This document shows positions 1,119 to 36,568 of a stretch of 64,000 nt of DNA, in pieces. Made by a program: the position numbers and the translations under genes. Below the pieces are notes generated by a model, which did no database searches, had not been told where the DNA came from, and saw nothing but the letters and a program-made list of their open reading frames with translations. Position 1 is the first letter of the stretch. Each line of letters begins with the position of its first letter. Source of the DNA: Blastocatellia bacterium (GTDB lineage: Bacteria > Acidobacteriota > Blastocatellia > UBA7656); contig JBBWZK010000069.1 in assembly GCA_039648975.1 (NCBI GenBank), forward strand, positions 4,428 through 68,427, in the 5' to 3' direction.

Positions 1119-1133
1119 GCCAAGAGGACACTT

Positions 1134-8068: not shown

Positions 8069-8070
8069 TA

Positions 8071-13260: not shown

Positions 13261-13342
13261 CGATTACCGTTGGGCGGGGCGCTGCGGAAAAAGGAAAGGG
13301 GCGCGAGATGCACCCCTTCAAAATGGCTAGTTGTGAGAAAGA

Positions 13343-13567: not shown

Positions 13568-13575
13568 GGGACTCC

Positions 13576-14149: not shown

Positions 14150-14208
14150 TACAAATCTGCCTTTCTTTTTGGTTGGTTGAGGGACAAAGGAGGGAAAGAC
14201 GGCCCTGA

Positions 14209-15198: not shown

Positions 15199-15278
15199 TG
15201 AATCCTCCAAAGGGACGGTTTGGAGGGGGTTGGGAACGGGGTTAGTCTCGGCGCGTGAGACTGTAAGGATTGCTACTT

Positions 15279-16407: not shown

Positions 16408-16410
16408 GGG

Positions 16411-16902
16411 CTAGGCAACCTTGATGGGCGAGAACTTCGCGGCTTGCTTAATACACTGCTCGTAAACTTGAGAGCGTTTATAGCTTTCACCCGCGCCTGA
16501 GAAGTCGAAGTCGGGCGCAACCTTTGCGGCCTTTGCGAGCCAGCCGTTATAAGCTGCCGTATTCATATCCCAAAGGCTTTTCGGCTGTGCGCCGCACTCC
16601 TCCCAAACCAGAGTCGAGCCTTCGAATACACGCCCGCCGTAATACGGATTCCAAAACGGTTCTGTACTGCCTGATGTGCCCGCCTTGATACAGCGATAGC
16701 GCCGACCATTCTGATTTGCAGATGTAGGCACGATTACATCGCCATAGCTATAGCCTGTAGAGGCTACCCATAGGCTACATATCTTCGCGGCTTCGAGAAT
16801 GGGTGCGAGGTCTTCGCCTTCATTAAGCGCAGGCTCAGTATCAAACTGAGTGAGCCGCTTGAGTTCGTCCATCGCTGCGCTTGCGTCGGTGAGGATAGGC
16901 AT
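16411..16902 (-). CDS. Putative head-tail connector / structural protein
   Basis: 163 aa, called by position. The N-terminus ELKRLTQFDTEPALNEGEDLAPILEAA resembles gp6-type connectors. The C-terminal half is not recognised. Confidence 0.35.
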   Translation of the reverse strand: MPILTDASAAMDELKRLTQFDTEPALNEGEDLAPILEAAKICSLWVASTGYSYGDVIVPTSANQNGRRYRCIKAGTSGSTEPFWNPYYGGRVFEGSTLVWEECGAQPKSLWDMNTAAYNGWLAKAAKVAPDFDFSGAGESYKRSQVYEQCIKQAAKFSPIKVA

Positions 16903-17135
16903 TACTTACTCGACTTCTTTGACCGCTTGTTCTCAGGCGGGAATTGAATCGCCTTGTTTTCGGGCGAGGCTTCGATAGCCTTCTCCTCTTGCACGACGAT
17001 AATGCCGTACTTGAGCGCCACAAGGTCGGGCAGTTCGCAGCCTGAACCGACCAAAAGGAAAGCCGCGTCGGGGTCGTTCTCTTCCACAACGCGGCTCCTG
17101 TCACTTGTCAGGTACAATCTCTTTTGAGATAGCAC
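16902..17135 (-). CDS. Small phage protein, unknown function
   Basis: 77-aa ORF, translationally coupled within the head module. Confidence 0.35.
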   Translation of the reverse strand: MLSQKRLYLTSDRSRVVEENDPDAAFLLVGSGCELPDLVALKYGIIVVQEEKAIEASPENKAIQFPPENKRSKKSSK

Positions 17136-17137
17136 TT

Positions 17138-17713
17138 CTAGCTCCTGTAGTAGTCCACGATGACCGCGTTGCCGTTGAGCGCACTCGCAAGCTGCGCCGT
17201 GTTGCCGCTGATGTTAGTCGCATCAAAAGCAACAGTCGGAGCGGTGCCTTCCTTCACGCCGTTGAGGAACGCAGCGAGGACGGTGTTGCGACTCAGCCTG
17301 TGACCTAGCCCTAGCTTCGAGCCAAAGCCGATGGCTGTCGTCGCGCCCGTGCCGTCATGTGCGGGAATCGTGATACTGGTTACGGTTTTGAACGCCTTGC
17401 TGCCGGTAACGGTGCCAGCGGTGTCGACCGTGAACGCGGGCAGGGTTTCGCTAATGCTGTGGCCCTCTGCGTCGGTGCCTGTGACCACAACCTGAATCGC
17501 TTTAATGTCCGTGTTTGTGCCGCCAGCCGTAGCCGTGATGTTACGAGGCACATCGGGATTCGTGATTGCAGTCGTGATTACCTGCTGTGAGCCATTATCC
17601 GTAACCGCCGCATGGACACCCGTAGTAGAAGCAGCCGCAGGACTGCCGACCGCAACGCTGAAAACATCAGCGCCAGCACCCGCAATGATGTTGCCGCCTT
17701 CAATTACTGCCAT
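17138..17713 (-). CDS. Putative capsid decoration / accessory head protein
   Basis: The ATG at 17711-17713 follows AAGGAG. It is a Gly/Thr/Ala-rich beta-type sequence directly downstream of the capsid gene. Confidence 0.4.
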   Translation of the reverse strand: MAVIEGGNIIAGAGADVFSVAVGSPAAASTTGVHAAVTDNGSQQVITTAITNPDVPRNITATAGGTNTDIKAIQVVVTGTDAEGHSISETLPAFTVDTAGTVTGSKAFKTVTSITIPAHDGTGATTAIGFGSKLGLGHRLSRNTVLAAFLNGVKEGTAPTVAFDATNISGNTAQLASALNGNAVIVDYYRS

Positions 17714-17783
17714 ATCTTTCTCCTTAAAAAGCAAAGTCGGGCATAGCCGAAGCCATGCCCGACGTAGCCACGATTACAGTGGA

Positions 17784-19031
17784 TTAGAGGCCGGTAACGG
17801 TGGCGAATGCCTGCGGGCGGTATACTTCGAGCGAGAGACGCTCAACCGCACGGATGCTCTTCTTCACCTTCTGGAAGTCGTCGTTGATGTAGCCAACCTC
17901 AACCGTGATGCCCTTGCGACGAGAGATGTGACTGTATGCGCGGAACGCGCCGATGAGAGCCGTACCCGCGCTGATGGCGGTCGTCTGCACAACGGGCAAG
18001 CCCCAAATGCGCTCAACACCTGAATCGCTCGGCGCACCCCAAATGTAGAGGCCGTCAGACGTGCGAAGCAGGCGCACGTTCTGCCAGTCGGTCGGGTTGA
18101 AGATAACGGCATCCGGCGTGGCGAAAGCGACTGTCATCACCTTGACCATCGCCTTGTACACCGCATCGGGTGACGGGTCTGCGCCCTTCGCCTGCGTCTG
18201 AATGCTCGCCGTGTTCAGCAAGCCCGTGAGGTTCGGAGAATTGCCGTCGCCGTTGAGTAGCTGCGAGTCCTCGCGCAAACCAACCATGTAAACAAGGCGG
18301 TCGTTGATGAGGCTCTGAATGCCGTCAACGTCGTCAAGCTGCTCCTCCGTTACCGGGAGGAAGGTGCCGAGCGACTGCACGGGCGACGTGACTTCGCTGT
18401 AGGCCAGCGCGGACTCGGCAAGGGCCGCACCCTCGTTGCGCTCTGCGGCATTGTTCGTGAAGGTCGTTTCCTTCATGAACTTGACCGCGTTCTGGTTGGT
18501 CGTGCCCTGCGGAATCAGGTCGGCAACACGGAGCGGACGCTGCGCGCTCGGAATAAGCACGCCAGTACGAGTCACCTGCGGCGGGAAACCACCGCTCGTG
18601 GTCATCGTCGTCTTAACGTCGGCATCGGGAAACTCGACCGTATAGCTGTATGAGCTAGAAACGTGACGGCCAACGCGGGACTTATACTCGTTGCTCGCTA
18701 CAAAGAGTTCGCCAAGAGTGCGCGTGCCCTTTGCATCAGTAGAAACCGTGAAGCCGCTTCCCTGAGCAACAGGAAAGCGCATATCGCCCACAGGCTCGCG
18801 CTCAAGACGCTCAAGAGCGGCCTTGTTCTCGTTGGCGATGCGCTCGGCGTCCTGTAGCTTTTCATACTTCTTGGCAAGGTCGTTGAGTTCCTTGTTCTTG
18901 GCATCAACGTCCTCAAGGACTGCCATATCCATATCAAACTCACCGTTCGCATTGCTGTGCTTTGCGAAAATCTCGGCAAGTGCTTGCCGCTTGGCCGCAA
19001 GTTCCTCGGCCATCTGTCGTACATTGGACAT
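17784..19031 (-). CDS. Major capsid protein, HK97 family
   Basis: 415 aa with an N-terminal coiled delta-like region. The core reads ..LIPQGTTNQNAVKFMKETTFTNNAAERNEGAALAES..FLPVTEEQLDDVDGIQSLINDRL... It follows the prohead protease. Confidence 0.9.
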   Translation of the reverse strand: MSNVRQMAEELAAKRQALAEIFAKHSNANGEFDMDMAVLEDVDAKNKELNDLAKKYEKLQDAERIANENKAALERLEREPVGDMRFPVAQGSGFTVSTDAKGTRTLGELFVASNEYKSRVGRHVSSSYSYTVEFPDADVKTTMTTSGGFPPQVTRTGVLIPSAQRPLRVADLIPQGTTNQNAVKFMKETTFTNNAAERNEGAALAESALAYSEVTSPVQSLGTFLPVTEEQLDDVDGIQSLINDRLVYMVGLREDSQLLNGDGNSPNLTGLLNTASIQTQAKGADPSPDAVYKAMVKVMTVAFATPDAVIFNPTDWQNVRLLRTSDGLYIWGAPSDSGVERIWGLPVVQTTAISAGTALIGAFRAYSHISRRKGITVEVGYINDDFQKVKKSIRAVERLSLEVYRPQAFATVTGL

Positions 19032-19047
19032 AATTGCTCCTCTTCTT

Positions 19048-19911
19048 CTAGGCAGCGCCTAGCTGCTTTGCTTGATTTCGTAAAAACTCGGCGTAGAGCT
19101 TGCGGGCTTGTTCTTTGGCCTTGTTCTTCTCGGCGGGGTCGGTTGCTGATAGAAGCTCTTTGATTGAGTTAATCGCTTCCTGCCCGCCATCCCATGCATC
19201 AACCACGCTCTGTAACTTGGCGCGATTGGACGCACTAATAACGCGACCTTCTTTAACTCGAAGCTCGTTTATCGCCTTTGCTCGTGTTGCGAACTCCAGC
19301 ACGGCAGCACGCACCGCTTCGGAGTGGAGTTGAAACGGCAGTCCAGCACGCGAACCGCCGTCAATAAGCTCGTTTAATTCTTTGACCGCCGTAACCGATG
19401 CCGCAGGGTTCGCGGGCACAGTTACAAGCGAGATTTCATATAGGTCGATTTGCTTGAGTAGCCGCACGCCACCCATCACCCCTTCAAGGTTGTCTAGCTT
19501 GAGCGGGATGCTGTTGTTGCGGGCGTATGCGGCGAGTTCATCAAGACTGTCGAAGAACTCGGCATCCTTAATCCGATAACCGATAGATAACTTTTTGATA
19601 ACGCCGTCGCGCAGGAGTGTGAGCGCATCCTTGCCCTGTGCGGTGTCGCTTATCTTCGCCTTGATAAAGAGGCCGTTCTCGTCCTCATGGGCTTCGAGAG
19701 CTTTGCCGATTGGAGTCGTCCAATCGTGCTGCCAAGCAATAAAGCCATTGGCAAGAAACTCTTGCAGGCCGTCTTTGAAAGCGCCCGGCGCGATGATGTC
19801 GCCAACTCTGTCGAGGTTGGAGAATGCGGCTCCGTAGCCTGCGAACTCGCCCTCTTTCAAACTGTCGGCTTTTAGAGAAAAAGATATAGCTTTGCGTTCA
19901 AGCTGATTCAT
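19048..19911 (-). CDS. Prohead protease (HK97/S78 family) with a scaffold-like C-terminus
   Basis: Shows AWQHDWTTPIGKALEAHEDENGLFIKAKI and YEISLVTVPANP, followed by a C-terminal helical region. Confidence 0.85.
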   Translation of the reverse strand: MNQLERKAISFSLKADSLKEGEFAGYGAAFSNLDRVGDIIAPGAFKDGLQEFLANGFIAWQHDWTTPIGKALEAHEDENGLFIKAKISDTAQGKDALTLLRDGVIKKLSIGYRIKDAEFFDSLDELAAYARNNSIPLKLDNLEGVMGGVRLLKQIDLYEISLVTVPANPAASVTAVKELNELIDGGSRAGLPFQLHSEAVRAAVLEFATRAKAINELRVKEGRVISASNRAKLQSVVDAWDGGQEAINSIKELLSATDPAEKNKAKEQARKLYAEFLRNQAKQLGAA

Positions 19912-19948
19912 CAGCCAAACTCCAGTCTGCCTTTGGTTGTTAAGTTGA

Positions 19949-20578
19949 TTACTCTTCGGAAACGGAGGCTGTGGGGCGTTTGCGATACTCTATTGAGCAA
20001 CGACAACGGGCCATGCACTCGCGCCCGCCAATCGGTGTTAGCGTGCCGAGCGGAACCCATCCTGCCGCCGCTTCAGCCGGGCAGTCGCCACAATGATTCG
20101 CGCCGTCATCAAGGATGCTGCGTTCTTCTTCAAAGCCTGCGTCTGCTTTCTCGCCGCGTTTGACGTATTCGTATGTGCCGACACCCGCATCGGCGTATAG
20201 CTCGGCGCGAGTCTTGAGCGTGCCGTCCTTTTGCTGTATGCCTGTGTCGATGTCGATTGTGAACTTGACCAGATAGCGGTCTTGCTCAAGCAACTTGGCA
20301 TTGATGCGGCTGAGAGTATTCTGCGATATGTGGTTAAGACCACCCGCAGCTATCAGGCTCACGCCTGTATGCATGGCTCGCAATCGGCTTGTGATTTTCT
20401 GTTTCCACTCAGGGCCATCTATCTCACCGCCGATTAGCTCTTCGGCTATTTGCCCTAAATCGTCTTTGGTGTCGTCTACCGCAGAGTCAATCCACTCGCG
20501 TACAACGCTGTCGGGTACAGGATTGCCCTTCGCATCAACATACTGCCGATTCGCCTTGTCCCATGTGTACTTAGGCAT
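19949..20578 (-). CDS. Minor head (MuF/gp7-position) protein with a Cys-rich C-terminus
   Basis: Lies between the portal and protease genes. The C-terminus is HCGDC..GW..IGGRECMARCRCSIEY. Confidence 0.45.
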   Translation of the reverse strand: MPKYTWDKANRQYVDAKGNPVPDSVVREWIDSAVDDTKDDLGQIAEELIGGEIDGPEWKQKITSRLRAMHTGVSLIAAGGLNHISQNTLSRINAKLLEQDRYLVKFTIDIDTGIQQKDGTLKTRAELYADAGVGTYEYVKRGEKADAGFEEERSILDDGANHCGDCPAEAAAGWVPLGTLTPIGGRECMARCRCSIEYRKRPTASVSEE

Positions 20579-21983
20579 GGAGCGTGTCAGCGTTTACGAG
20601 GTCACGGGCAAGCGCGGGAGCGTGTTCGCGCCACCATGCCGCGCCTTCATCAAGATTCAACTCGCCCGCCAGCCCTTTATGCTCAATGCCCTTGCCCGCA
20701 CTCACATCAGCAAGCGGGTTCAGCCCGTTGTCGTGTGGGTTCGGTGCGCTCGCCGTGATGTAAACCTCATCGTCGGGCGTAACAGGTAGGCCGACCGCTG
20801 CGCGAGCTTCTGAGCGCTTAATCCAACCGCCCTTAACGCCGATGGTGAGCCGTTGGTAAAGCGCCGTCTGGTCTTCCTGTAGCACTCTCACTTGAGACAG
20901 GTCATGCGATACCCGCATGGTGCCGTCGCTTGTGAAGTCGGGCAGGAGTTGCAGGGTTAGCTCTTCCTCGAAGTGACGCAGCAACGGCACGACATAGCTC
21001 TCGTATGCCGCCTCTCGTGCTTCTTTGAAGTTGGCAAAGGTTGAACGCTGAAGCCCCGCACCGAGGCCGAGAACGATTGCGGGAATGCCAAGTACAGCCG
21101 ATACCCGCTCCTCGTTAATCATTCGAGCCGCTTTCAAGTTCAGGGACTCAGGGTTAAAGCTGAGTTGCTTAACTTCAATACCGCCGCTGGCAACAATCGG
21201 CTCGCCTCTGTTATCGCCTGATGTCTGTCGTTTGATTGCTTCCTTGAGGCTTTCAGCGTCGATGTCCGCGCCGTCCTTGCTGGTCACGATATAAGGCGGG
21301 ACGCCCGAATTGACCAACAATGCAGCCGAGAAGTTTGCAGCCTCGTTGTCGCTGAATATCTCGCGGAACAGCGAGCGCATCGGACTCATGCCGCGTCGGG
21401 TGAGCGGGTTCATGCCGTCCGCAATATGAACTATCTCGGAAGGCTCGAAGCGTTGCGGTATGCCATCAACGAAGTACTCGTAATAGCTGATGAACTGTGA
21501 GCCGTCGCCCGGCCAGCGCGGTCGTACCATCCAGTGAGGCAAGTAATAAAGCTCAACAGGCTTGCCTGCGCCATTGCGCCTCTTGAGAAAGAAGGCGTTG
21601 CCATCCGTCACCCACGAAAGCGCAAAACACTTGAGTAGCGTCGAGCCTGAGTGATAAGGATTCGGGCGTTTGAAGAGTTGAACGAGTGGGTGGTTAGGAA
21701 CAACCTCGTCTTTGCCCTTGCGATTCGTGACAACTGTTAGCGGCGACTCCGGCAAAGTGTTGCCGACCCATCGAACCGCGCTCATCACGATTGAGTTGCG
21801 GGTTACATCTCCAACCTCTGCCTCGTAATCGATTCGGCTGCGTGAGAGAATCGTTGGCAGTAGTCCGTCAAGGAGATGCCAGTTCGCGCCGAAGTAACGA
21901 TTACCTCCACTGCCGCCGAACCCCGTAAACAGCCCCTTGATGGACGCGCCGATTCTTTGTAGTAGCGTTTTATTCTCTCGCAT
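20571..21983 (-). CDS. Portal protein (HK97 family)
   Basis: 470 aa, directly after terL with a 1-nt overlap. Typical portal core segments are present (..NPLTRRGMSPMRSLFREIFSDNEAANFSAALLVNSG..). Confidence 0.85.
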   Translation of the reverse strand: MRENKTLLQRIGASIKGLFTGFGGSGGNRYFGANWHLLDGLLPTILSRSRIDYEAEVGDVTRNSIVMSAVRWVGNTLPESPLTVVTNRKGKDEVVPNHPLVQLFKRPNPYHSGSTLLKCFALSWVTDGNAFFLKRRNGAGKPVELYYLPHWMVRPRWPGDGSQFISYYEYFVDGIPQRFEPSEIVHIADGMNPLTRRGMSPMRSLFREIFSDNEAANFSAALLVNSGVPPYIVTSKDGADIDAESLKEAIKRQTSGDNRGEPIVASGGIEVKQLSFNPESLNLKAARMINEERVSAVLGIPAIVLGLGAGLQRSTFANFKEAREAAYESYVVPLLRHFEEELTLQLLPDFTSDGTMRVSHDLSQVRVLQEDQTALYQRLTIGVKGGWIKRSEARAAVGLPVTPDDEVYITASAPNPHDNGLNPLADVSAGKGIEHKGLAGELNLDEGAAWWREHAPALARDLVNADTLHA

Positions 21984-23278
21984 TATGAAAACGTGATGAC
22001 TCCGCGCCCGCTCAGTTCCGAGAGCGCATACACAACCGCATCAACCTCGTCGTCGTTCTCGGTTGCGACAGGAAAGCGTGTGAGTTGGTCTTCGAGTGAA
22101 GCGAACACGCCAACGTGATGCACCCGCCCTTGCTCGTATAGTGCTGCCGCAGGCTCAGCGCGTACTGTCTTGCCCCTTGAGGCATGAACTGTCTTGATTG
22201 GTGCTGTGCGGCGTATGGTTCGCAGCGTGTGCTCGACCATCTCGCCGCCGTTGTTGCGTTCAGCTATCAGTCGGTCAGCCTTGAACTTGTCGAACAGGTC
22301 GAGGGCGCGTTTCGCCCATGCTTGCGGGGATAGCTTCACACCCTCGCTGTGCAGCAAATAGAACTGGTCGTCGTTACCTTTGCCAGCGACCGCAATACCT
22401 GTGAAATCTGAATCCTCGCCATGCGTTGTCGCGGGGTCTATTGCGACCACGACGCGCTGTAGACTTTCTGGCGCTTCATCAACGCGGTTATTCGCAATCC
22501 AATCAAACTTCCAAAGTGCGCCGGGCACATCGAGCAGGAGCTCGCCTTCAATCTCTTGCCGACCGAGCCGTGTGCCTTCGTATGCGCCTACAACCGTGTC
22601 GATAAAGTTGGCAGCGAGGTTTAATTGATTCTCGTAGGTGCTGCCCTTTGTGATAGCAACCGAGTTATCTTTCTCGGCTTTCTGGACTAGCTCACGGATG
22701 AGCTTTACAGGCTTTGGGGTAGTGGTTGCGATAACCTGCGGGTGTGCGCCGAGGCGCAAACCGAGCAGCAGCATGTCCCATGCTTCCGGTCGGTTCCATG
22801 CCGCAATCTCATCAGCCCATCCCGCATCGTGTTGCGGGCCGCGCAACAGGTCAGGCTCGTCGGCTGAGTAGCAAGTGGCGATTGCCCCGTTCGGCCAGGT
22901 CAACAACCTCTTGCTCGGCTCGTAAACAGGCTTACTATCTTGCGGGCAACAGGCGAGGAGGCCCGACTCACCGCGCACCATAACGTCGCGCACGTCTGCG
23001 GCTGTCCTGCCTACAAGTGCGATGCGTTTGGCAGTACCCGATTCAACCTTTGAACGAACCCACTCGGCACCCGTTCGAGTCTTGCCGAATCCGCGCCCGG
23101 CCATGATTAGCCAGATGAACCATGCGCCATCGGGCGGTAGTTGTTTCTCGCGCGCCCAAAAAGGCCAGCGAAACCTAAGCCTCGCTTTGTCCTGAATCGT
23201 CAGGCTCGCTAGAAACTGGCTGCGCTGTGATTCGGGTAGCAAGAGCAGCCATTCGGCTGTCAAAGTCTGAGGCTGCAT
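21983..23278 (-). CDS. terL: Terminase large subunit
   Basis: Walker A is MAGRGFGKTRTGAEWV, as in the GTA/HK97-like terminase clade. There is a C-terminal RNase-H-like nuclease region. Confidence 0.9.
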   Translation of the reverse strand: MQPQTLTAEWLLLLPESQRSQFLASLTIQDKARLRFRWPFWAREKQLPPDGAWFIWLIMAGRGFGKTRTGAEWVRSKVESGTAKRIALVGRTAADVRDVMVRGESGLLACCPQDSKPVYEPSKRLLTWPNGAIATCYSADEPDLLRGPQHDAGWADEIAAWNRPEAWDMLLLGLRLGAHPQVIATTTPKPVKLIRELVQKAEKDNSVAITKGSTYENQLNLAANFIDTVVGAYEGTRLGRQEIEGELLLDVPGALWKFDWIANNRVDEAPESLQRVVVAIDPATTHGEDSDFTGIAVAGKGNDDQFYLLHSEGVKLSPQAWAKRALDLFDKFKADRLIAERNNGGEMVEHTLRTIRRTAPIKTVHASRGKTVRAEPAAALYEQGRVHHVGVFASLEDQLTRFPVATENDDEVDAVVYALSELSGRGVITFS

Positions 23279-23810
23279 TTGTAATTTCGATTGCGCCGCC
23301 GTCTGCGCCGGTTATCTCTTGGCGGGTAGTCTCAACAGGCATACCTGCGGATGTGCGGTATAGCTTGGCGACCGTCTCAGCCATGCGGGTCACATCGCGC
23401 ACGCTCCAATTCAACGGCTTGATTGTCATTTGCTGACCGTGTTCGTTGGTGTGCTCGACTTGGTAAACCGGGAACTCAAGCATCTGCGCGAGCTTGCTGT
23501 GGATGCGCTCGGCCAGTTTCCACTCTTCGTTGCGTAACTCTTCTCGGCGCTTCGCCCACTTCTCGGCTTCTACCTGTGCGGCTTTTTCGCGGGCTTTCTC
23601 TTGTAGTTCGTTCTGGTGGTCATCGTAGGCTTGTGCGCGGTTTACCCAGTCAAACGTTCTCGACCAACGGTCACAAATCGTTTTACTCTTGCCTAACTTC
23701 TGACTAACCGCCTCAAGCGTGCGTTTCGCGCCCATCTCGAAGTAGCATTTAGCTGCCTCGTAAGCTTTGGCGCTTTCGTTTGTTTGACGTAGCCAACTCT
23801 TGATAGCCAT
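23175..23810 (-). CDS. terS: Terminase small subunit (HTH)
   Basis: It is upstream of and overlaps terL. The N-terminus KAYEAAKCYFEMGAKRTLEAVSQKLGKSKTICDRWSRTFDWVNR is HTH-like. The start is the ATG at 23808-23810; a longer GTG-initiated ORF reaches 23873. Confidence 0.6.
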   Translation of the reverse strand: MAIKSWLRQTNESAKAYEAAKCYFEMGAKRTLEAVSQKLGKSKTICDRWSRTFDWVNRAQAYDDHQNELQEKAREKAAQVEAEKWAKRREELRNEEWKLAERIHSKLAQMLEFPVYQVEHTNEHGQQMTIKPLNWSVRDVTRMAETVAKLYRTSAGMPVETTRQEITGADGGAIEITNAASDFDSRMAALATRITAQPVSSEPDDSGQSEA

Positions 23811-23842
23811 AAAAAAAGGCGGAGCCAATTGCTCGGCTCCGC
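23811..23842 (-). terminator. Intrinsic terminator abutting the terS start
   Basis: 8-bp stem GCGGAGCC (23819-23826) / GGCTCCGC (23835-23842). On the minus strand T7 (23811-23817) follows, then the terS ATG. Confidence 0.5.
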
Positions 23843-23959
23843 TTCTAGGAGATGAGAGGAAGGTAATGGACACCGCACACGAAAAAAGGCGGGCACGGAT
23901 GCGCCTCTCGCCGTTTCAGCCCCCTCAAAAACAACGGCAAGAATCCATGCCCATAAAAC

Positions 23960-27874: not shown

Positions 27875-30800
27875 ATGCGTATTGACGAATCAACCCGCAA
27901 CACACTTAGCCAGTACCTAACGGATATTCGAAGCCTGCCGAACGAGTCCGCGAAAACAAACAGGTTCTCCGCGCTCGTTGCCACGTTGTTTCCCGGCACC
28001 TCTGCGTCCACTGAGTTAGCAGCAGGGGTCGAGAAGATGATTCGCATCGATACGTTGGACGGTGAGAAGCGAGGGCGGATGGATGCCTATTACGGCAATG
28101 CAATCGTGGAGTTTGAAAGGTCTTTGAAGGCTACTGGGGCGGAAGCTGAAAGGCAGTTGAGGGAGTATACGGCGGGCGTTTGGAAAAAGAGCAAGGAGAG
28201 AAGACAAATCCTGTGTGTAGCTTCTGACGGTATCGTGTGGAAAACTTATCGGCCATCGCTCAAGGAAGGAACGAAGGCGAAAGTCACACCTGAAGACGTT
28301 GTATTGGAGTCACTGAGAACTATTGAAGTCACCGAGCAAACGCTTGATGACTTTTATATGTGGCTGACCAGTTTTCTTTTCCGGCCTTCTCGCATCGCGC
28401 CGACCGCAAGTCAATTCCAGTTTGACTTCGGGGCAACCAGTCCGGCCTTTGTCGATGCGATGGAAACATTAAGCCGAGCATGGGAAGCCGTTAGTAAAGA
28501 GTCCGAGCCGCAGTTGATGTACAACACATGGCAGAGGTATTTGACGGTCACATACGGCCAACTCGGCAAGGCTGAAACTCAAGAACTCCACAAGCTGTTT
28601 TTGAAGCATACCTATCTCGCAAGCGTTGCCAAACTGCTGATATGGGCATCCCTCTCGCGTGGCAGAACCGAAACCAGCCTTCGTGAAGTTGCGAAGGAGA
28701 TTCTGTCGGGCCAATATTTTCAAGCTCGAAAGATTGCCAATCTCGTTGAGGACGATTTCTTTCAGTGGGTGAGGCGGCCAAAAGCTGAAGCCATCGTTTC
28801 GGAAGTATGGGAGCGAATCCTCGACCAGATGACCACTTATGATTTGCCGCTTCTCAATCAAGATGTTCTGAGGGGCGTGTATCAAGAGCTAGTCGACCCG
28901 AAAGACCGTCATGAATTAGGCGAGTACTATACGCCCGAATGGTTATGCGAAAGGGTTGTCGATGAACTACTACCTTCAAGCGGGTTCGTGAGCGTTCTCG
29001 ACCCCACATGCGGCTCAGGCAGTTTTCTACACGCTGTCATTGCTCATCAATTAAATGCAAATCAGGAAGGCGGAGATGCAACACGCCTGCGCCAAATACT
29101 CGAAAACGTAGCGGGGATAGATATTCATCCACTGGCCGTCACTATAGCGAAGGCTACTTATTTGCTCGCGGTGCGCTCGCTGTTGAAGGCAACGAAGCGG
29201 CCCATTCAAGTCCCTGTCTACCTTGCCGATTCGCTCTTTCTACCAAGAGAGGTGTCACAAATGAGTTTTGGCGAAGTGCCAGGCTATGAGATACGCTTCG
29301 GCAAAGATAGCAAGGTGTCCATCCCTGAAGAACTTGTCCAAACGCCCGAATTGTTTGACCCCGCGATTGCGGCATCGGCGCAGATTGCCCTCGACCATGC
29401 AAAGACCAATAAGGAGAGCGAGAAATCACTTCAGGCATATCTAAAGCAGGCCGTGCCCGAACTCATCGAGCATAAAGACTCGGATGCGATGGTTACTGCG
29501 CTTTGGTCTTTCACAAAGGAGTTGAGCAGCCTGATAAAGAAGAAAGAGGACACCATTTGGGCCTTCATCGTGAGGAACAGCTACCGGCCAGCGATGTTCC
29601 GAGAAAGATTCGACTATATAGTTGGCAACCCTCCGTGGCTCTCATACAGATACATTTCTGACCCTGAGTATCAAGCCGAGGTAAAGAAGCGGGCCATTGA
29701 CGATTATGGCATAGCTCCTAATTCTCGAAAGCTATTCACGCAAATGGAGCTTGCTACAATCTTCTTAGCTCACACTCTTTCAACATTCGGGCGGAAGGAT
29801 GCTCACCTCGCATTTGTATTGCCTAGAAGCGTGGTGTCGGCTGACCAGCATGAGAATTTACGAGTACGCAGCTATAAAGCGCCGATAGAACTGTATGAAC
29901 TTTGGGATATGGTTGATGTATATGAAATATTCAAGGTTCCGACGTGCGTCCTATTCGCTAAGAAGATAGATAAGCCCGTCGTACCTTCCACCAACTATTC
30001 TCTTCCTGCAATCGAATGGAGCGGCGACTTACCATCCCGCGATGTGGCATGGAGTGAGGCGCAGAACTATTTAACAAGTGAAAAAGCCACAGCGAAGATT
30101 ATCTATCTAGGAGAGCGCACCGCCCTTTCCACGAAGCCCGGTAGAACCAAGCCCAACTCTCCCAGTTTGTACTCAAAGGATTTTCATCAGGGAGCTACCA
30201 TTGTCCCGCGTAGTGTCTACTTCGTTCAGGCCGAGGGGCTTGAGGGCGAAGCGGACGCCGATAGTCTCTACTGGGCAGAAACCGAGCCTGAGCAAGCTAA
30301 GGAGGCAAAGGAGCCGTACAAAGATGTTTATCTCAAGGGACACGTTGAGGGACGCTTTTTGTTTTCGACGGCTCTATCTAGGCACGTCCTACCGTTCGTA
30401 TTCTTAGAGCCTGCCGTCGTGGTTCTACCTGTCGAAGAAAATAAAGGAAAATTAGAGTTAAAGACTGCCGACCAGTTAAGAGAGGAGGGATACAGAGAAT
30501 TCTCGTCTTGGATGGAGCAAGCTGAGACAATATGGAACTCAAAGCGCGGAGATAAAGCCGACAAGCAAACCATCTATGAAAGGCTAGATTATGGTAGTGG
30601 ACTGACCATCCAAAAACCTAATGCAAAATACATCGTGCTTTACAACGCCGCAGGAACTAACATCTCGGCAACTCGCGTGTTCCGAAAGGACTTGGTGCTT
30701 CCTTTTATTATCGAGCATAAATTGTATTGGTGTGCTTGTGCGAACGCTGACGAGGCAGATTACTTAACGGCAATTCTGAACGCTGAGTATGTTAACGATT

Positions 30801-31066
30801 TAATCAAACCCTTCCAGTCTCATGGACTAATGGGCGAAAGGGATATTGAGAAGAAGGTTCTAGACCTTCCCATCCCTCCGTTTAACCCTAATAAGTCAGA
30901 GCACAATGACATTGTTGAATTAGGGAAACGGGCGCGACTCGAAGCGGCAGCATTCGTAAAGAAAGTCTCTTTTCCAAAATCGCTCGGCAGACGCCGCGCT
31001 ATGGTCAGAGAGGCTATTGTGGACACGCTACAGGAAATCGACATGGCTGTAAAAAAACTGTTTTGA
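27875..31066 (+). CDS. MmeI/PglX-like single-chain N6-adenine DNA methyltransferase (possible type IIG/IIL enzyme)
   Basis: SAM motif I is VLDPTCGSGSFL (28994-29029) and motif IV is NPPW (29627-29638). The N-terminal block GRMD70AYYGNAIVE79FE81R resembles the MmeI-family D..ExK nuclease motif, with Lys replaced. About 400 aa of TRD-like C-terminus follows. GGGAGG lies upstream of the ATG. Confidence 0.75.
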   Translation: MRIDESTRNTLSQYLTDIRSLPNESAKTNRFSALVATLFPGTSASTELAAGVEKMIRIDTLDGEKRGRMDAYYGNAIVEFERSLKATGAEAERQLREYTAGVWKKSKERRQILCVASDGIVWKTYRPSLKEGTKAKVTPEDVVLESLRTIEVTEQTLDDFYMWLTSFLFRPSRIAPTASQFQFDFGATSPAFVDAMETLSRAWEAVSKESEPQLMYNTWQRYLTVTYGQLGKAETQELHKLFLKHTYLASVAKLLIWASLSRGRTETSLREVAKEILSGQYFQARKIANLVEDDFFQWVRRPKAEAIVSEVWERILDQMTTYDLPLLNQDVLRGVYQELVDPKDRHELGEYYTPEWLCERVVDELLPSSGFVSVLDPTCGSGSFLHAVIAHQLNANQEGGDATRLRQILENVAGIDIHPLAVTIAKATYLLAVRSLLKATKRPIQVPVYLADSLFLPREVSQMSFGEVPGYEIRFGKDSKVSIPEELVQTPELFDPAIAASAQIALDHAKTNKESEKSLQAYLKQAVPELIEHKDSDAMVTALWSFTKELSSLIKKKEDTIWAFIVRNSYRPAMFRERFDYIVGNPPWLSYRYISDPEYQAEVKKRAIDDYGIAPNSRKLFTQMELATIFLAHTLSTFGRKDAHLAFVLPRSVVSADQHENLRVRSYKAPIELYELWDMVDVYEIFKVPTCVLFAKKIDKPVVPSTNYSLPAIEWSGDLPSRDVAWSEAQNYLTSEKATAKIIYLGERTALSTKPGRTKPNSPSLYSKDFHQGATIVPRSVYFVQAEGLEGEADADSLYWAETEPEQAKEAKEPYKDVYLKGHVEGRFLFSTALSRHVLPFVFLEPAVVVLPVEENKGKLELKTADQLREEGYREFSSWMEQAETIWNSKRGDKADKQTIYERLDYGSGLTIQKPNAKYIVLYNAAGTNISATRVFRKDLVLPFIIEHKLYWCACANADEADYLTAILNAEYVNDLIKPFQSHGLMGERDIEKKVLDLPIPPFNPNKSEHNDIVELGKRARLEAAAFVKKVSFPKSLGRRRAMVREAIVDTLQEIDMAVKKLF

Positions 31067-31190
31067 TAGTTGTGTCTTTTTTTTAAGTTAGACAGGCTAG
31101 AGGTTAGAAGCGGAGAAACCTTCCTTGCTTGACAGAGTAACTGCCAGTCAAAATAATGAGGCCGCACGTCATAGGAAGAGGGGAGAGCGT

Positions 31191-32342
31191 GTGAGTCAGC
31201 ATAACCAGATGGACTTATTTGGTCAGCCAATAACTGAAAAAGTCCTATTAGAAAATGACGTTCACTTGCTGGCCCTAACCGAGATTCAGGGTATCGGTTC
31301 TGCGACCGCTCGGTCATTTTTTGAAATGTTTGATGGCGATTTATCGCGGGTTTGGAGCGCGCAGGCAGAAGAGTTATATGAAGGGCTGCGGAAGTCACGG
31401 GCGCAACATCCGATAAATATTGTCAACAAAATACACAAAGACTCTGCGAAGCTAATCGAGTTGGCGCGAGACCGGCTTCGGATGTTCAAGGAGCGAAGGA
31501 AGATTTCGGTCATTTTCCGCGACACCCCCGAATACCCAGTCACGCTCCTTGACCTGCCTAATCCGCCTGCATGGATATTTGTACAGGGCGATTCAAAGCT
31601 CCTACACAACACAAATCTCGTCGCGGTTGTTGGCACTCGCACGCCCACAGAGAACGGAATTGAAGCGGCCAAACGGCTCTCAATTTTACTCGTCACAAAC
31701 GGAGCCTTGATTCTGTCGGGTTTGGCTGAAGGCATAGACGAGGTGGGCCATCGCACAGCCGTCGACCACGGTGTTCCTACCGTCTCGGTGTTAGGTCACG
31801 GCATCGACATCGTATTTCCTCGGTCAACTGCTGCCTTACGGCAACAGATAATCGATGTCGGCGGCGCTGTGGTGACTGAATATCTGCCGAGAGACTCCTA
31901 CAATGCCGAGCGATTCGTTCAGAGAAACCGCATTCAGGCTGCGCTCTCACAAGCGGTTGCGATTGTGGAAGGAAAGACAAAGAGCGGTACGGCGCATACG
32001 GTACGTTTTGCCAAACAACTTAAAAGGCCGTTGTTCGGCGTCCGAATTGGTCGGCCAACTAAGTCACCGAATCAGGAATTGCTCGAAGAGTTGAGTAAAA
32101 ATAATGCGCCCGTGTTTGACCTCGATGCTCTTGATACAAAGGAAGCTCTGACTAAATTTATGCACGAGCATCTTTCTTTGGGCAATAATCTACATGCCCC
32201 TGCCAAGCCGTCGCGGTTCCGCATGATTCTGAAAGAACTCGATAGGATTATTGAATACTATGGCGCGAATGACGCAGACTATCAGTACCTCATTGATGAA
32301 ATAGACCAACGCCGTAAAGGAAGTAAGAAAGATGCCAATTAA
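31191..32342 (+). CDS. DprA/Smf-family (SLOG Rossmann) protein
   Basis: VAVVGTRTPTENG..LSGLAEGIDEVGHRTAV..TVSVLGHGIDIVFP..RFVQRNRIQAAL..VEGKTKSGTAHTVRFA is the DNA_processg_A pattern. An N-terminal HhH/SAM-like segment (LLALTEIQGIGSATARSFF) is present. The start is ambiguous: TTG 31125, GTG 31191 after GGGGAG, or ATG 31209. Confidence 0.8.
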   Translation: MSQHNQMDLFGQPITEKVLLENDVHLLALTEIQGIGSATARSFFEMFDGDLSRVWSAQAEELYEGLRKSRAQHPINIVNKIHKDSAKLIELARDRLRMFKERRKISVIFRDTPEYPVTLLDLPNPPAWIFVQGDSKLLHNTNLVAVVGTRTPTENGIEAAKRLSILLVTNGALILSGLAEGIDEVGHRTAVDHGVPTVSVLGHGIDIVFPRSTAALRQQIIDVGGAVVTEYLPRDSYNAERFVQRNRIQAALSQAVAIVEGKTKSGTAHTVRFAKQLKRPLFGVRIGRPTKSPNQELLEELSKNNAPVFDLDALDTKEALTKFMHEHLSLGNNLHAPAKPSRFRMILKELDRIIEYYGANDADYQYLIDEIDQRRKGSKKDAN

Positions 32343-33486
32343 GGCTGTTATACTCGACCTTGATGGAACGCTCATCGATACCACGGACAATATCGTGGCC
32401 GGTGTTCCACAGATGATTTCGAGTCTTCAACAGAATGGCGTAGCCGTCTATGTTGCGTCCAACAGATTGCCTGCGCCACCAGTGGATTTTAATGGGCTAG
32501 GAATAACTCCGAACGAGTACCTCACGAGGCGCAGAGTTGGCCAACGTAAGGGAACGGGTGCGTTTGTTGATGCGGTTCTAGCAAACCTTAGAATCGAAAG
32601 AAATGAACTCCTATATTTGGGAGATTCCGTCAATGATATGAGAGAGGCTGTTAATAGTAAGGTAGCCTTCTTTCTAGCGGCTTGGTCAAATCCAACGTAT
32701 TCATACGGGCTTGCAATTAAGACGCCTGCGCGATTTGCTCATATCGTGAAGACTTTTTTCTTAAAAGACAAGCTATGGTTTTACCGGATAAACAGTGTCG
32801 ACCACCTTACTCGAACTGTCGCTGTACGAGCACTCCTAGACCCGGACACCGCAATTTCAACTGGCATCAGAGACCTCCTAAAAAGGAATATACTTGGCCC
32901 ACCTATAAAGACCTATTCCCTACCTGCCTATTTATCCTTCCATCTGTTCTCAAGCGTGTATCTTGAGGGCTTACATTTACATGGAAGTCAGGGAGGGCCA
33001 ACCATTTGGTGTATTTATCCGGGGCATGATGGCAGTCAGGGCAGAGTCTTAAGTACTTTCGCACAGGTGGTATCACGATTGTTTCATGACAATTATCAAC
33101 CTTCTTTAATTAATCGGCATACTCCTTCTATAAAAAGTGCATATGCACGATGGCGCGGCGAAACGGTCGATTTTGCTAATCAACTAAAGACAATCAACCT
33201 CTCTCCTGCACTTCGCAGATTCATAGAAGACAGGACTATATTAGTCTTTGACGATTTCACTACTGAGGCTTATAGCTTTGAAGCGGCAAGGAACTTTTTA
33301 TACAACGCAGGTGCGCGTGAAGTAATCAGTATTGCTGTTGGGAAGTATCGGAAACCCTACTATCCTCACTGTCCACATCCCGGCGTTGTTTGGGATAGTT
33401 TCGCTCCCGCCAATCTTGAGGATAGAGATTTTAGAATCGACGCAGTTGAGGAAAACTACGACCTCGATGCGGTCACTCCCTTTTAG
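32332..33486 (+). CDS. HAD-phosphatase :: ComF/GntX-like phosphoribosyltransferase fusion
   Basis: HAD motif I is VILDLDGTLIDT and motif IV is YLGDSVNDMREA. The C-terminus IWCIYPGH..LINRHTPSIKSAYAR..ILVFDDFTTEAYSFEAARNFLYNAGAREVISIAVGKY is a PRTase fold with a non-canonical PRPP loop. It overlaps the DprA-like gene by 11 nt. Confidence 0.65.
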   Translation: MPIKAVILDLDGTLIDTTDNIVAGVPQMISSLQQNGVAVYVASNRLPAPPVDFNGLGITPNEYLTRRRVGQRKGTGAFVDAVLANLRIERNELLYLGDSVNDMREAVNSKVAFFLAAWSNPTYSYGLAIKTPARFAHIVKTFFLKDKLWFYRINSVDHLTRTVAVRALLDPDTAISTGIRDLLKRNILGPPIKTYSLPAYLSFHLFSSVYLEGLHLHGSQGGPTIWCIYPGHDGSQGRVLSTFAQVVSRLFHDNYQPSLINRHTPSIKSAYARWRGETVDFANQLKTINLSPALRRFIEDRTILVFDDFTTEAYSFEAARNFLYNAGAREVISIAVGKYRKPYYPHCPHPGVVWDSFAPANLEDRDFRIDAVEENYDLDAVTPF

Positions 33487-33526
33487 TAGTTGCCAATCCC
33501 TATATTGGGTAGGCCATTAGACGCCT

Positions 33527-33558
33527 AAAAAAAAGGGGCAAGCCCGAAAGCCTACCCC
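33527..33558 (-). terminator. Intrinsic terminator of 33568-34194
   Basis: The minus-strand RNA is GGGGUAGGC-UUUCGG-GCUUGCCCC followed by U8. The G-U pairs make the stem strand-specific. Confidence 0.65.
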
Positions 33559-33567
33559 GCCTGCGCT

Positions 33568-34194
33568 CTACAGCGTGCCGCATGGTCTAGCACCACTCCA
33601 TACCCGTTTGAGGCTGCCGCCCGGCCCCCACTTCGTCTTCCGATACAAGGCGTCCACGTACCAAACGTAACGCACGCCGTCCTGCAAGGTACGGAGGCAC
33701 ACGATGTCTACGCCGCCTAAGTTCTCATAAGGCAGTCTGTCCCTGCCCAAGTTTGCCCACTCGCCGCCCGGCTGGATTCTGTGCCCGTGCAGGCGGTAAA
33801 ACCCGTCGTCCTTAGAGTGCGAGTTCCAGCCAAACTGGAGGCGCTCCTCGTGCAAGGCGTACCCCTCGCGGGAAAGAAACCAGCGCCGCTTGTACTCCTC
33901 AAGGCCCGCCAGTTTCATGTCCATGTCGACTACCACGATGCCGTCGTGCGCCTCCCGCCTGTCCCTGTCGTGGCTGTAGTTGGATACACGCTCCGACGCC
34001 AGAAGCCAGATAGCCCGTGCGTGCGTTTTCACATAGTCGCTCACTGCAATAGCCGCAGCCGTAAAGTCATCCTCGGTTACGGATTCCTTAGCTGCTTTGC
34101 GCCGTGCCGAGCCGCCCGCATGACGAGCGCCGGTCGCCGTAGGCAGATAAATCACGTTGGTCGTTTCTGTGTTCTCGGTTCTTTCGTTCATCAA
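33568..34194 (-). CDS. Hypothetical protein (GC-rich orphan inside the island)
   Basis: 208-aa ORF with its own terminator. I recognise no motif. Confidence 0.4.
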   Translation of the reverse strand: MMNERTENTETTNVIYLPTATGARHAGGSARRKAAKESVTEDDFTAAAIAVSDYVKTHARAIWLLASERVSNYSHDRDRREAHDGIVVVDMDMKLAGLEEYKRRWFLSREGYALHEERLQFGWNSHSKDDGFYRLHGHRIQPGGEWANLGRDRLPYENLGGVDIVCLRTLQDGVRYVWYVDALYRKTKWGPGGSLKRVWSGARPCGTL

Positions 34195-34508
34195 AATTCG
34201 TCTCCTTTTTTCATTGATTTGGGGATAAAACTAGCCCCTCTAAACTCCCGATTTTGAAGTCCCGATTTGCTTTGTTTGTCAATAACAAAATGCAGGCATG
34301 AGCAAAAAAAAGGCAGGCCGTTTAAGCCCGCCCGGTGCCCATTTTAAGCGTTGTATATGTCCTTCTCCGGTGTATTCTAGTGTTTCATCGCAATAGATTT
34401 GATGGACGGAATGCAAGAAATCGCCCGAAAAAAGGAGATTCTATCCTACAAATTCATTGCGATGAAACACAAGGACGCCCTCCATTCTTTCATTTCCCTA
34501 AAAGGTAA

Positions 34509-34537
34509 TTGACATTTCTCTCATTAAATAATATAAC
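34509..34537 (+). promoter_or_regulatory. Sigma70-type promoter for the membrane-protein pair
   Basis: TTGACA (34509-34514), a 17-nt spacer, then TATAAC (34532-34537). It lies about 60 nt upstream of the ATG at 34600. Confidence 0.5.
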
Positions 34538-34599
34538 GTGCGCATCAATTGGATTTCCTTAGCAAAATGAGTTGATAAATTTACACTAGGCGGATATAT

Positions 34600-35295
34600 A
34601 TGAGTGCACCAGATAAACAACCACCGAATCGTTACGAGAATTACAAAAAACGAGCTAAAAAACAGGAAGACTTTACTAGGAAATCCACTATCAACGTGAC
34701 TATATCAATTATAGTGGCGCTATTCGGATTAGTGTTCGCTCTATTTGTCATGTATAAAGATGTTGAATTTCAAAAGCAATACAATTGGAAATTGATAGCG
34801 GTATTGAGTTCTATCGGGTTCATAATTCTTGCTCTAATGGCCTTATATACGCCACGATTACTGAAATTAAATCCAAAAACGGAAAGTCAGACAGAAAAAA
34901 AAGAGGTGGGATTAAGGGCTACAGTTGTCGGCTTATTAGTAGATGATAAACAAAAGAGCTTTTTTACTATATATATATCACTTTTAATAGGTTTCCTTAT
35001 TTATCTAGTTTCGATTTATTTTGCAGGTCAGGCTATAAGCATAGGAACTCTGTCTTTACTAGCAGCTTTCCTATTAGCACTCTTTCTTAACCAATACTTA
35101 TTGAAGTATCGATTGAAATATGGATACTTTGGCACGACCGAACACGAAGCACGCGAGATAATTGACCTAATTCTCAAACATTCTGATAAATCAGACTTCT
35201 CCGATGGGGATGGCCTTAATGAGCTTTTCCCTGAACCAGAGAGAGGGGGGACGGGGCATCGAGTATTAGTTCCATCACTGGACAATGACAGATGA
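34600..35295 (+). CDS. Four-TM membrane protein, unknown function
   Basis: 231 aa with four hydrophobic helices and a Lys-rich N-terminus. It is very AT-rich. Confidence 0.5.
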   Translation: MSAPDKQPPNRYENYKKRAKKQEDFTRKSTINVTISIIVALFGLVFALFVMYKDVEFQKQYNWKLIAVLSSIGFIILALMALYTPRLLKLNPKTESQTEKKEVGLRATVVGLLVDDKQKSFFTIYISLLIGFLIYLVSIYFAGQAISIGTLSLLAAFLLALFLNQYLLKYRLKYGYFGTTEHEAREIIDLILKHSDKSDFSDGDGLNELFPEPERGGTGHRVLVPSLDNDR

Positions 35296-35738
35296 AAAAC
35301 GCTGATGCTGATTCGGTGACAGCCTTTCTTAAACGGGCAACTGATATTTTGTTCGTACAGAACCCAAAAGGAACTGCACTAGGAGTCCTCTTCGGATTTA
35401 TGCTGTATGGACTTTCACTAATGTTTGCTCCTGCTTTGGGAAAAATTAGCTTTATAGACCTTACTAAGGTTTATGCAATCTACTATGTGATTTTCGGAAT
35501 GTTCGTTTTTAACATACGCTCTTACTTTCGGAGACGAGAGTTCAGCCCGGAAATTGAAAAGGCATTTGAGGTAATTAGGGAAGCACGCAAGTCAGGGAAT
35601 ATGGGTGAACTAGAAGCAAAGATAGAATATCGCAAACTGATTCATAAGGTGTTGGAAGAAGTAACAATCAAGGTTCCTCCAACACCTGAACCGCGACGCC
35701 GAAAACCTATTGCCTCCAAATCCCAATCAGGTAGTTAA
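35292..35738 (+). CDS. Two-TM membrane protein with a charged helical tail, unknown function
   Basis: 148 aa, with an ATGA overlap onto the previous gene. It is AT-rich. Confidence 0.5.
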   Translation: MKNADADSVTAFLKRATDILFVQNPKGTALGVLFGFMLYGLSLMFAPALGKISFIDLTKVYAIYYVIFGMFVFNIRSYFRRREFSPEIEKAFEVIREARKSGNMGELEAKIEYRKLIHKVLEEVTIKVPPTPEPRRRKPIASKSQSGS

Positions 35739-35809
35739 TTCACCTTGAAGTCTTTACCCGCTAAACCTTATTTTAATCGGGCTATGCGCTACCAAACTTC
35801 CACCTCGCT

Positions 35810-36568
35810 TCACATCAGTTGGCACAACGCTATTTTCCAGCCGGTCAACCCTTGGGGTACAGCCTTAAAACGACGGTGTTCCGTCCCGAATAGCAAAATG
35901 TTATGCGCCCCCGCCGTAGCCACTTCGATTGCCCGCTTCGCATGCGCCTGGCCGCGCACTTCGCGGAAGTCTTCCGGGTAATCATCGAGGTGCGCCAGCA
36001 AGGTTTCGGCTTCGATCTCAAGCGGCGCGGGCGGCGTCGGGCTATTGATCAACTCGACTACCGCCTTGAGCGAAGCGACCGGATAAACGTTGACGCCCGT
36101 GACGACCGCCGCTTCCTCGGCGTTCTCTTCGGGCAGCAGCAAACGCTTTGCGCCATTAGCCCGCGCTGCTACCGCGATGGATAGCGCGCCCTTGACGGGG
36201 CGCACGCGACCGTCGAGCGATAACTCGCCGACGATCACCGTGTCGGTCAACTCTTCGCATTTGAGGTCGCCGTTCGCGCCGAGAATGCCGACGGCAATCG
36301 GCAGGTCGAAGCTTGAGCCTTCTTTCTTCACATCGGCGGGCGCGAGGTTGACCGTGACGCGATGAATCGGGAAGAAGAAGCCGCAGTTATTGATGGCGGC
36401 GCGAATGCGTTCGCGGCTCTCGCGCACGGCGGCGTCCGGCAGTCCGACCATAGTGAACGACGGCGCGAGGCTGTCGCCCGCCTTCGGCGTCAGGTCAACT
36501 TCAACGTCCATCACGTAGGCATCAATGCCATACACGGCGGCGCTCAAGGTCTTGAATAGCATGGCCAC
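35810..36568 (-). pseudogene. comM: comM/yifB (Mg-chelatase-like competence ATPase), 5' fragment truncated by insertion
   Basis: The N-terminal Lon-like domain and ..DFREVRGQAHAKRAIEVATAGAHNILLFG are intact. The expected GPPGxGKT is replaced by TEHRRFKAV... from nt 35884 downward. A stop follows at 35810. Confidence 0.8.

Follow-up and report, generated by a model that had tools for sequence, protein, structure and literature searches.

Does a mobile element that interrupts comM, and that carries a DprA-like and a ComF-like gene of its own, act on the competence pathway of its host, or is the resemblance of its genes to competence genes coincidental? The question is raised by a stretch of 64,000 nucleotides ("the window", C100:4428-68427, where C100 is contig JBBWZK010000069.1) from an uncultured Blastocatellia bacterium (Acidobacteriota), represented by a metagenome-assembled genome (MAG; GCA_039648975.1) of 6.9 Mb in 486 contigs that is 85% complete with 2.7% contamination. 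We conclude with high confidence that the two genes constitute a ShosTA toxin–antitoxin and abortive-infection module, that this module is carried by a serine-recombinase prophage of about 39.8 kb residing in comM and that the likeness to competence genes is a coincidence. ShosTA is a published type IV toxin–antitoxin and anti-phage system (PMC11961720, PMC12961424), and the antitoxins of ShosTA and of the related PsyrTA have been described as DprA homologues whose partner toxins carry phosphoribosyltransferase (PRTase) domains (Millman et al., 10.1101/2022.05.11.491447). We assign the pair to ShosTA because hidden Markov models (HMMs) specific for ShosA and ShosT are by far its best family matches and because the closest solved sequences are Escherichia coli ShosA and ShosT, with which the predicted folds agree over their full length. 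At the level of sequence and predicted fold, both proteins agree with ShosTA in every defining respect.

The DprA-like gene, shosA, lies on the plus strand and can be read as an open reading frame (ORF) of 405 codons from a TTG at position 31125; it is called elsewhere from a GTG at 31191, which rather than the TTG is probably the real start, defining a protein of 383 amino acids (31191..32342). That the insert contains a gene of the DprA family, as the original prediction had stated, is borne out by the Pfam model DNA_processg_A (PF02481, 7e-58), the only domain found. The protein consists of a SAM-like helical N-domain, the DprA Rossmann domain and a two-helix C-terminal extension, lacks the DprA winged helix and reaches 172.8 bits against the canonical DprA model TIGR00732, below the cut-off of 191.15. 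Among the PADLOC models, ShosA is matched at 1.4e-75 (PDLC03961), with PsyrA a far second at 1.9e-27. In a sequence search of the PDB the ShosA structures 9vzo and 8zva came out best (8e-44), compared with 2e-20 for the best canonical DprA. An AlphaFold2 (AF2) model built from 30 homologues, with a predicted local distance difference test (pLDDT) score of 90, had 8zva as its top Foldseek match (6.6e-22, template-modelling score 0.83 on the target), followed by DprA structures. A phylogenetic tree, described below, places the protein likewise.

The second gene, shosT (32332..33486, plus strand), encodes the candidate toxin of 384 amino acids, in which PADLOC, PDB and fold searches and alignment identify an N-terminal HAD-type hydrolase and a C-terminal PRTase. 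The N-terminal third matches Pfam HAD families (residues 6-114) and shows the motifs DLDGT at 9 and GDSVND at 97. PADLOC assigns the protein to ShosT at 1.9e-34, and the solved E. coli ShosT (8zvb and others) is matched at 9e-26 over residues 73-334. The AF2 model (pLDDT 87) matches 8zvc, 8zvd and 8zvb over the full length at 3e-25 to 3e-23 (best 3.1e-25); the next match after the ShosT entries is a HAD phosphatase at 5e-5. None of the Pfam PRTase models reaches E=1 on the protein. Its VFDDF at 305-309 aligns with the VIDDF of 8zvb, and D307 and D308, invariant in 10 homologues, would by alignment correspond to D331 and D332 of the phosphoribosyl pyrophosphate (PRPP) loop in E. coli. In the published protein the hydrolase comprises residues 1-164 and the PRTase residues 165-424, and the PRPP-loop mutant D331A/D332A is non-toxic (PMC11961720). 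As a separate observation, only the window's ShosT and the protein closest to it retain the HAD nucleophile motif DxDGT (alignment columns 10-16), which is degenerate (DVSGT, DLKGT, SVEDT, SLRNV) in the other ShosT homologues, so that the family as a whole may not share a phosphatase activity of the N-domain.

The gene had originally been described as a ComF-type gene with a PRTase fold, of which the fold stands and the ComF type does not. ShosT has no zinc ribbon and carries a HAD domain instead, comF models gave no match to it at E<=0.01, and Helicobacter pylori ComF ranked only 50th in the fold search (7e-4); we therefore rejected membership in ComF. The only match to TIGR00201 in the genome is a ComF-like gene with a double zinc ribbon (DZR_2) and a Pribosyltran domain on contig C137, and in a BLASTP comparison of this protein with ShosT only 46 residues align, around the PRPP loop.

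shosA and shosT are co-oriented, overlap by 11 nucleotides and lie 2.4-4.7 kb inside the right junction of the insert (the initial estimate of about 3 kb was a fair one). The arrangement reads as one translationally coupled operon. The order A-then-T is conserved, at 25-57% identity, in three loci from genomes or metagenomes and in 8 of 11 IMG/VR contigs, in which ShosT lies directly downstream of the ShosA-like gene; an alignment was needed as query to find the IMG/VR homologues, as ShosA as lone query gave no match there. In the three loci (L024-L026), whose ShosA homologues are 44-55% identical to ours, the next gene always encodes a HAD-bearing protein of 385-391 amino acids that is 42-57% identical to the window's ShosT, while the other neighbours differ from locus to locus (a DEAD/MZB helicase and an Mrr nuclease; HTH, trypsin and ThiF/JAB/E2 genes; unknown genes). 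The nearest named ShosA homologues include one from Herpetosiphon (Chloroflexota) and one from an Acidobacteriota MAG. The pair hence recurs in unrelated defence islands and proviruses, and comM is absent from the fetched flanks (up to 6 kb) of all 11 other loci with both ShosA and ShosT. One further IMG/VR contig (L117) has comM beside DprA and contains no ShosT; the DprA there is apparently the canonical one of the host, adjoining comM, which fits the proximity of comM and dprA seen in several relatives.

These neighbourhoods also bear on the type IIG restriction–modification (RM) enzyme encoded upstream of shosA, a single chain of 1063 amino acids (27875..31066, plus strand; PADLOC REase_MTase_IIG 1.6e-79; Pfam N6_Mtase and Eco57I). 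Since its gene is co-oriented with and adjacent to the pair, with a gap of only 124 nucleotides, one might suppose that the type IIG enzyme, the DprA-like protein and the HAD–PRTase protein together form one new three-gene defence system. We give this idea scarcely any credence and rejected it because the enzyme has no relative in 14 other ShosA-like loci, where the upstream neighbours differ. Moreover, both units match known systems that are complete and function independently, and the 124-nucleotide gap contains a promoter-like site (TTGACA-17-AATAAT at 31129..31157, plus strand; 11 of 12 consensus positions, a consensus match only) followed by a purine-rich ribosome-binding site before the start of shosA, although the region as a whole shows no excess of promoter-like sites. 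The type IIG enzyme is separate defence cargo outside the ShosTA module. Elsewhere in the genome, at C416:1049-4156, we noted a second type IIG enzyme that is 35% identical to the prophage-borne one over the full length.

The search for separate canonical dprA and comF loci that the original prediction had proposed found both: the ComF-like gene on C137 mentioned above, and a canonical dprA of 381 amino acids with DprA_N, DNA_processg_A and DprA_WH domains at C21:13638-14783, beside topA and about 7.7 kb from the 3' end of comM. On PF02481 this gene scores 267 bits, compared with 198 for the island copy, and the two proteins are 32% identical. In every one of 20 relatives a single canonical dprA scores 203-275 bits on the Pfam model, and other matches, present in four of them, reach at most 119 bits; a second dprA-family copy at 198 bits occurs in this genome only, and the island type is absent from all 20 relatives. 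A maximum-likelihood tree separates 19 canonical Blastocatellia DprAs by long branches from 30 ShosA-like proteins (SH-aLRT 98), and the window copy falls into the ShosA clade, where its nearest relative is a 55%-identical metagenomic protein. In the phylogenetic test that had been suggested, the island copy thus groups with the ShosA clade apart from the vertically inherited one; because the groups were gathered by similarity search, the midpoint-rooted tree speaks for this non-vertical placement and not for a direction of transfer. The island copy differs from a canonical DprA in falling below the TIGR00732 cut-off, in having one of the three domains only and in not being vertically inherited. 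We also considered it as the genome's working DprA and rejected this, given the canonical dprA by topA, its single-copy state in the relatives and the separate clade. As an aside, no more than 1-8 kb separate canonical dprA from comM, both in this genome and in at least five relatives (G002:C46, G011:C63, G007:C22, G010:C219, G005:C8), a conserved neighbourhood that could mislead the annotation of prophage ends, as in L117.

That chromosomal comM is interrupted, the starting point of the original prediction, is well founded. The 5' fragment of this YifB-type gene (35882..36568, minus strand) covers residues 1-229, comprising the ChlI/Lon-like N-domain and the first part of the AAA+ domain, as judged from Pfam, TIGR00368 and alignment to intact comM. 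The ORF containing it (35810-36568, minus strand) matches Pfam ChlI at 7e-45, only positions 1-30 of the Mg_chelatase AAA+ domain and, over its first ~218 positions, the YifB/ComM equivalog model TIGR00368 at 1.7e-65. Over residues 1-229 it is 90% identical to the intact comM (513-514 amino acids) of genomes of the same genus, and the similarity to intact comM of 19 relatives ends at residue 229, corresponding to window position ~35882-35885, beyond which the frame continues for 23 codons contributed by the element and stops at 35810. In a whole-genome search, the section that follows (Mg_chelatase positions 26-200) turned up at C100:2-526 on the minus strand, 3.9 kb to the left of where the window begins, and the remainder, including Mg_chelatase_C, at the end of contig C21. 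This end overlaps the beginning of C100 by 96 identical bp, so that the two contigs join; C21 is the only contig physically joined to C100. The ChlI, AAA+ Mg_chelatase and Mg_chelatase_C domains, continuous in an intact comM, are accordingly divided here between residues 1-229 and the rest of the gene, 39.8 kb apart.

Both junctions could be placed by blastn of intact comM from three genomes (G002, G001, G003) against C100, in which the halves adjoin at C100:40309 (window 35882) and C100:523, overlapping by ~12 bp. The right junction, attR (35870..35895), lies within the codons of the Walker-A motif (GPPGSGKT), and the left junction at C100:~523-526, 3.9 kb left of the window; the break falls between the first G and the following P of the Walker-A loop in AGAHNILL(I/F)GPPGSGKT. 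The 3' fragment keeps the Walker-A motif and has lost the entire N-domain. No intact copy of comM was found in the assembly (85% complete), and comM function has likely been lost through the split, as far as the sequence tells. comM is a well-documented, recurrent attachment site of unrelated mobile elements in many Gram-negative bacteria, and insertions in it have been proposed, without proof, to cut curing by transformation (PMC4774983, PMC12378983). In our case comM is simply the attB of this integrase, and its split is a separate matter from the ShosTA cargo.

The split comM and the DprA-like cargo are the two facts on which a competence-pathway theme had been built, in which element-encoded DprA and ComF paralogues serve as decoys or dominant negatives or redirect incoming single-stranded DNA (ssDNA). 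In its strongest form this would mean that the paralogues hinder transformation and, together with the disruption of comM, which the element does cause, shield the element against being deleted by transformation. Transformation-inhibiting elements are known (PMC12378983), and ShosA binds ssDNA and RecA much as DprA does (PMC12961424), so that competition with DprA is conceivable in biochemical terms. We nevertheless regard this explanation as very improbable. The PRTase is ShosT and not ComF, the pair is an obligate toxin–antitoxin unit found in many contexts without comM, no evidence of transformation in Blastocatellia turned up, and comM/YifB is conserved also in non-transformable bacteria such as E. 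coli. Similarly small is the chance we allow to a narrower version, according to which the prophage ShosA, beyond its role as antitoxin, competes with the host DprA on incoming ssDNA and, with comM split, lowers "chromosomal curing" of the prophage; if true, this would amount to a two-pronged anti-curing strategy. The thematic link between comM and ShosTA rests on this single case, and with a module that recurs away from comM the theme finds no support. Of the ways in which the original prediction had explained the paralogues, only its third option, unrelated repurposed folds, is supported, the pair being ShosTA. The prediction was to be given up if the island gene were the only dprA and grouped with vertical orthologues, or if the rest of the competence machinery were lacking. 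What we found is a separate dprA, an island copy that is not vertical, and comF-, comEC- and comEA-like genes (ComEC on C23 and a ComEA-like gene on C396); the competence idea is displaced by a better-supported explanation and not formally refuted. The resemblance of the cargo to competence proteins reflects shared ancient folds and not a shared pathway.

The carrier of the module extends from window position -3904 to ~35881, its leftmost 3.9 kb lying outside the window. The left junction is abutted by a large serine recombinase of 559 amino acids (Resolvase, Recombinase and Zn_ribbon_recom domains), which is followed by an HTH_26 regulator, a RAMA-domain protein and an HNH/AP2 protein. A structural module on the minus strand (3711..23873) comprises, according to PHROG matches, small and large terminase, portal, head protease, major head protein, a tape measure of 1729 amino acids and tail proteins. 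With an integrase at one end, genes for head, packaging and tail, and a host gene split at both ends, the insert has the make-up of a temperate phage of the large-serine-recombinase type, and it is a tailed prophage or a derivative of one. A query with the integrase returned no close relative among 185,579 species genomes; serine recombinases that are 46-48% identical occur in two relatives (G002 and G011) on contigs other than that of comM. A conserved lineage of integrases targeting comM, which we had considered, is not supported, as these homologues lie away from comM.

Accessory genes are found at both ends of the prophage, in patches of lower GC content. At the integrase-proximal end, an AbiJ-like gene (138-1118, plus strand; AbiJ_NTD4 and DUF7014, HEPN-like; Pfam 8.5e-25 and 7e-52) and an Abi_alpha gene (1134-2015, plus strand; Pfam 1.2e-41) make up a second defence patch (138..2015) with a GC content of 0.43-0.49. 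At the other end, three cargo ORFs between shosT and attR (33568..35738) have a GC content of 0.40-0.45: an uncharacterised ORF of 208 amino acids (33568-34194, minus strand) that converges on shosT, and genes for membrane proteins of 231 (34600-35295, plus strand) and 148 amino acids (35292-35738, plus strand). None of the three has a Pfam, PHROG or PADLOC match above noise, and they were not found beside other ShosA-like loci. The two membrane-protein genes overlap directly inside attR, with matches to SLATT and PycTM at noise level only, and may be superinfection-exclusion or defence cargo. The 208-residue ORF has a strong terminator-like hairpin on the minus strand at 33558-33535, and tblastn within this genome returned only its self-match. 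Most small ORFs at 24-27 kb likewise lack Pfam, PHROG and PADLOC matches, apart from 27263-27469, which encodes an HTH protein, and 25461-25940, which weakly matches a PHROG of unknown function.

How the module would act can be sketched from the E. coli system. There, ShosT must bind PRPP to be toxic, with help from its pyrophosphatase domain, and the consequences are a disturbed purine metabolism, aberrant duplication of DNA, filamentation and cell death; ShosA acts without binding the toxin, attaching instead to ssDNA and RecA and promoting repair; and ShosT is set free when a phage shuts down host expression (T7 Gp0.7) in combination with the instability of ShosA or with phage ssDNA and replication proteins (PMC11961720, PMC12961424). 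By analogy, the window's ShosT would bind PRPP via its PRTase domain, assisted by the N-terminal hydrolase or pyrophosphatase domain, and its use of PRPP would disturb purine and DNA metabolism to a lethal extent, which ShosA would offset by binding ssDNA and RecA without touching the toxin. By stopping host expression or by filling the cell with ssDNA, an infecting phage might then abolish ShosA function, so that ShosT kills or arrests the cell. The module would in this way protect the lysogen, and hence the prophage, from other phages, and it would do so in the company of other putative defence cargo, the type IIG RM enzyme on its own side and the AbiJ-like and Abi_alpha genes at the other end.

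As a toxin–antitoxin pair the module may also stabilise the prophage, and one may ask whether the pair is mainly an addiction module acting by post-segregational killing, not an anti-phage system. We think this unlikely, though it has points in its favour: ShosTA was first found as a toxin–antitoxin pair (10.1101/2022.05.11.491447), ShosA is intrinsically unstable in E. coli (PMC11961720), and the module sits beside the attR of an element that is open to excision or to curing by recombination. Against it stand two independent studies that show phage defence for the family and the clustering of the pair with dedicated defence genes (RM and Abi) in this prophage; the two roles are, in any case, not mutually exclusive.

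Several points weigh against the assignment of the locus to a ShosTA prophage with E. coli-like function. Because identity to the tested E. coli proteins in structural alignments is 23-31%, we infer toxicity, neutralisation and phage defence of this pair from the E. coli system. In this subfamily, ShosA bears a C-terminal extension of ~60 residues, and ShosT falls short of its E. coli counterpart by ~40. The prophage may be defective, since we recognised no genes for replication or lysis in it. Finally, the placement of the comF, comEC and comEA contigs in this host rests on binning, at 85% completeness and 2.7% contamination.

In several other Blastocatellia genomes, one to three truncated copies of the comM 5' part (residues 1-225 or 1-258), 70-89% identical and 1.5-6 kb apart, lie ahead of an intact comM and in its orientation; coordinates of truncated copies and intact genes are 3004-3777 and 5359-6131 in L037, 1-487 then 3004-4548 in L051, 2-705 then 3001-4540 in L057, 3004-3678 in L069 and 427-507 then 3004-4542 in L047. 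A Pfam search of the genes between the 5' copies gave no match. The arrays look like scars of comM-integrating elements that supply a replacement for the 5' part, which the window's prophage, unlike these inferred elements, does not, and they may tell more about how elements use the comM site than the locus that led us to them. In a genome of the same genus (G004), pieces of comM lie on four contigs (C155, C66, C79, C33), two of which end at residues 229-232, which suggests another insertion at the Walker-A position of our junction.

Compared with known systems, the ShosTA system itself, its carriage in prophage hot spots and comM as a target are known already, and the locus reads as a divergent member of the ShosTA family. 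Like E. coli APEC O1 ShosTA (ShosA 8zva and 9vzo; ShosT 8zvb-d and 9w2p/q), it is a two-gene operon whose ShosA combines a SAM-like N-domain with a DprA Rossmann domain and whose ShosT combines a HAD-like hydrolase with a non-canonical PRTase and a conserved DD PRPP loop; the E. coli proteins are the best sequence, HMM and fold matches for both window proteins, and they too are carried in mobile defence hot spots. Unlike in E. coli, from which the pair is separated by the 23-31% identity in structural alignments, ShosA has 383 amino acids with the two-helix C-terminal extension instead of ~318-331 and ShosT has 384 instead of 424; the window pair fits the second PADLOC model pair (PDLC03961/03962) better than PDLC02997/03012; and the pair is carried by a serine-integrase prophage in an acidobacterium. 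PsyrTA (RqlHI) also has a DprA-like antitoxin, and the PADLOC PsyrA model does match the window protein (1.9e-27), but far more weakly than ShosA, and the partner matches ShosT models and no PsyrT model. With canonical DprA/Smf the island protein shares the DprA Rossmann fold, to which ssDNA and RecA binding is common, whereas it is only 32% identical to the genome's own DprA, remains below the TIGR00732 cut-off and has no DprA_WH; with ComF(C) the partner shares the PRTase fold, whereas it has a HAD domain, no zinc ribbon and no TIGR00201 match.

Elements inserted in comM have been described in Aggregatibacter, Acinetobacter baumannii (AbaR), Mannheimia, Francisella, Pseudomonas syringae and Vibrio cholerae (PMC4774983, PMC12378983). 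Our element resembles them as a chromosomal element that splits a transformation-linked gene at a recurrent target, and differs in its host phylum, Acidobacteriota, in its large serine recombinase, which has no close relative in the 185,579 species genomes and 46-48% identical homologues that are not beside comM, and in a crossover exactly in the Walker-A codons. Serine-integrase prophages that split a competence gene are also represented by A118 and phi10403S in comK of Listeria. A serine-recombinase crossover in the Walker-A codons extends the comM hot spot to Acidobacteriota, and ShosTA together with a type IIG RM enzyme and two Abi genes on a prophage of an uncultured soil acidobacterium adds a modest new data point. 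For annotation, neighbouring genes for a DprA fold and a PRTase fold, when carried by a mobile element, are best taken for ShosTA or PsyrTA and not for competence genes, even where the element resides in a competence-associated gene.

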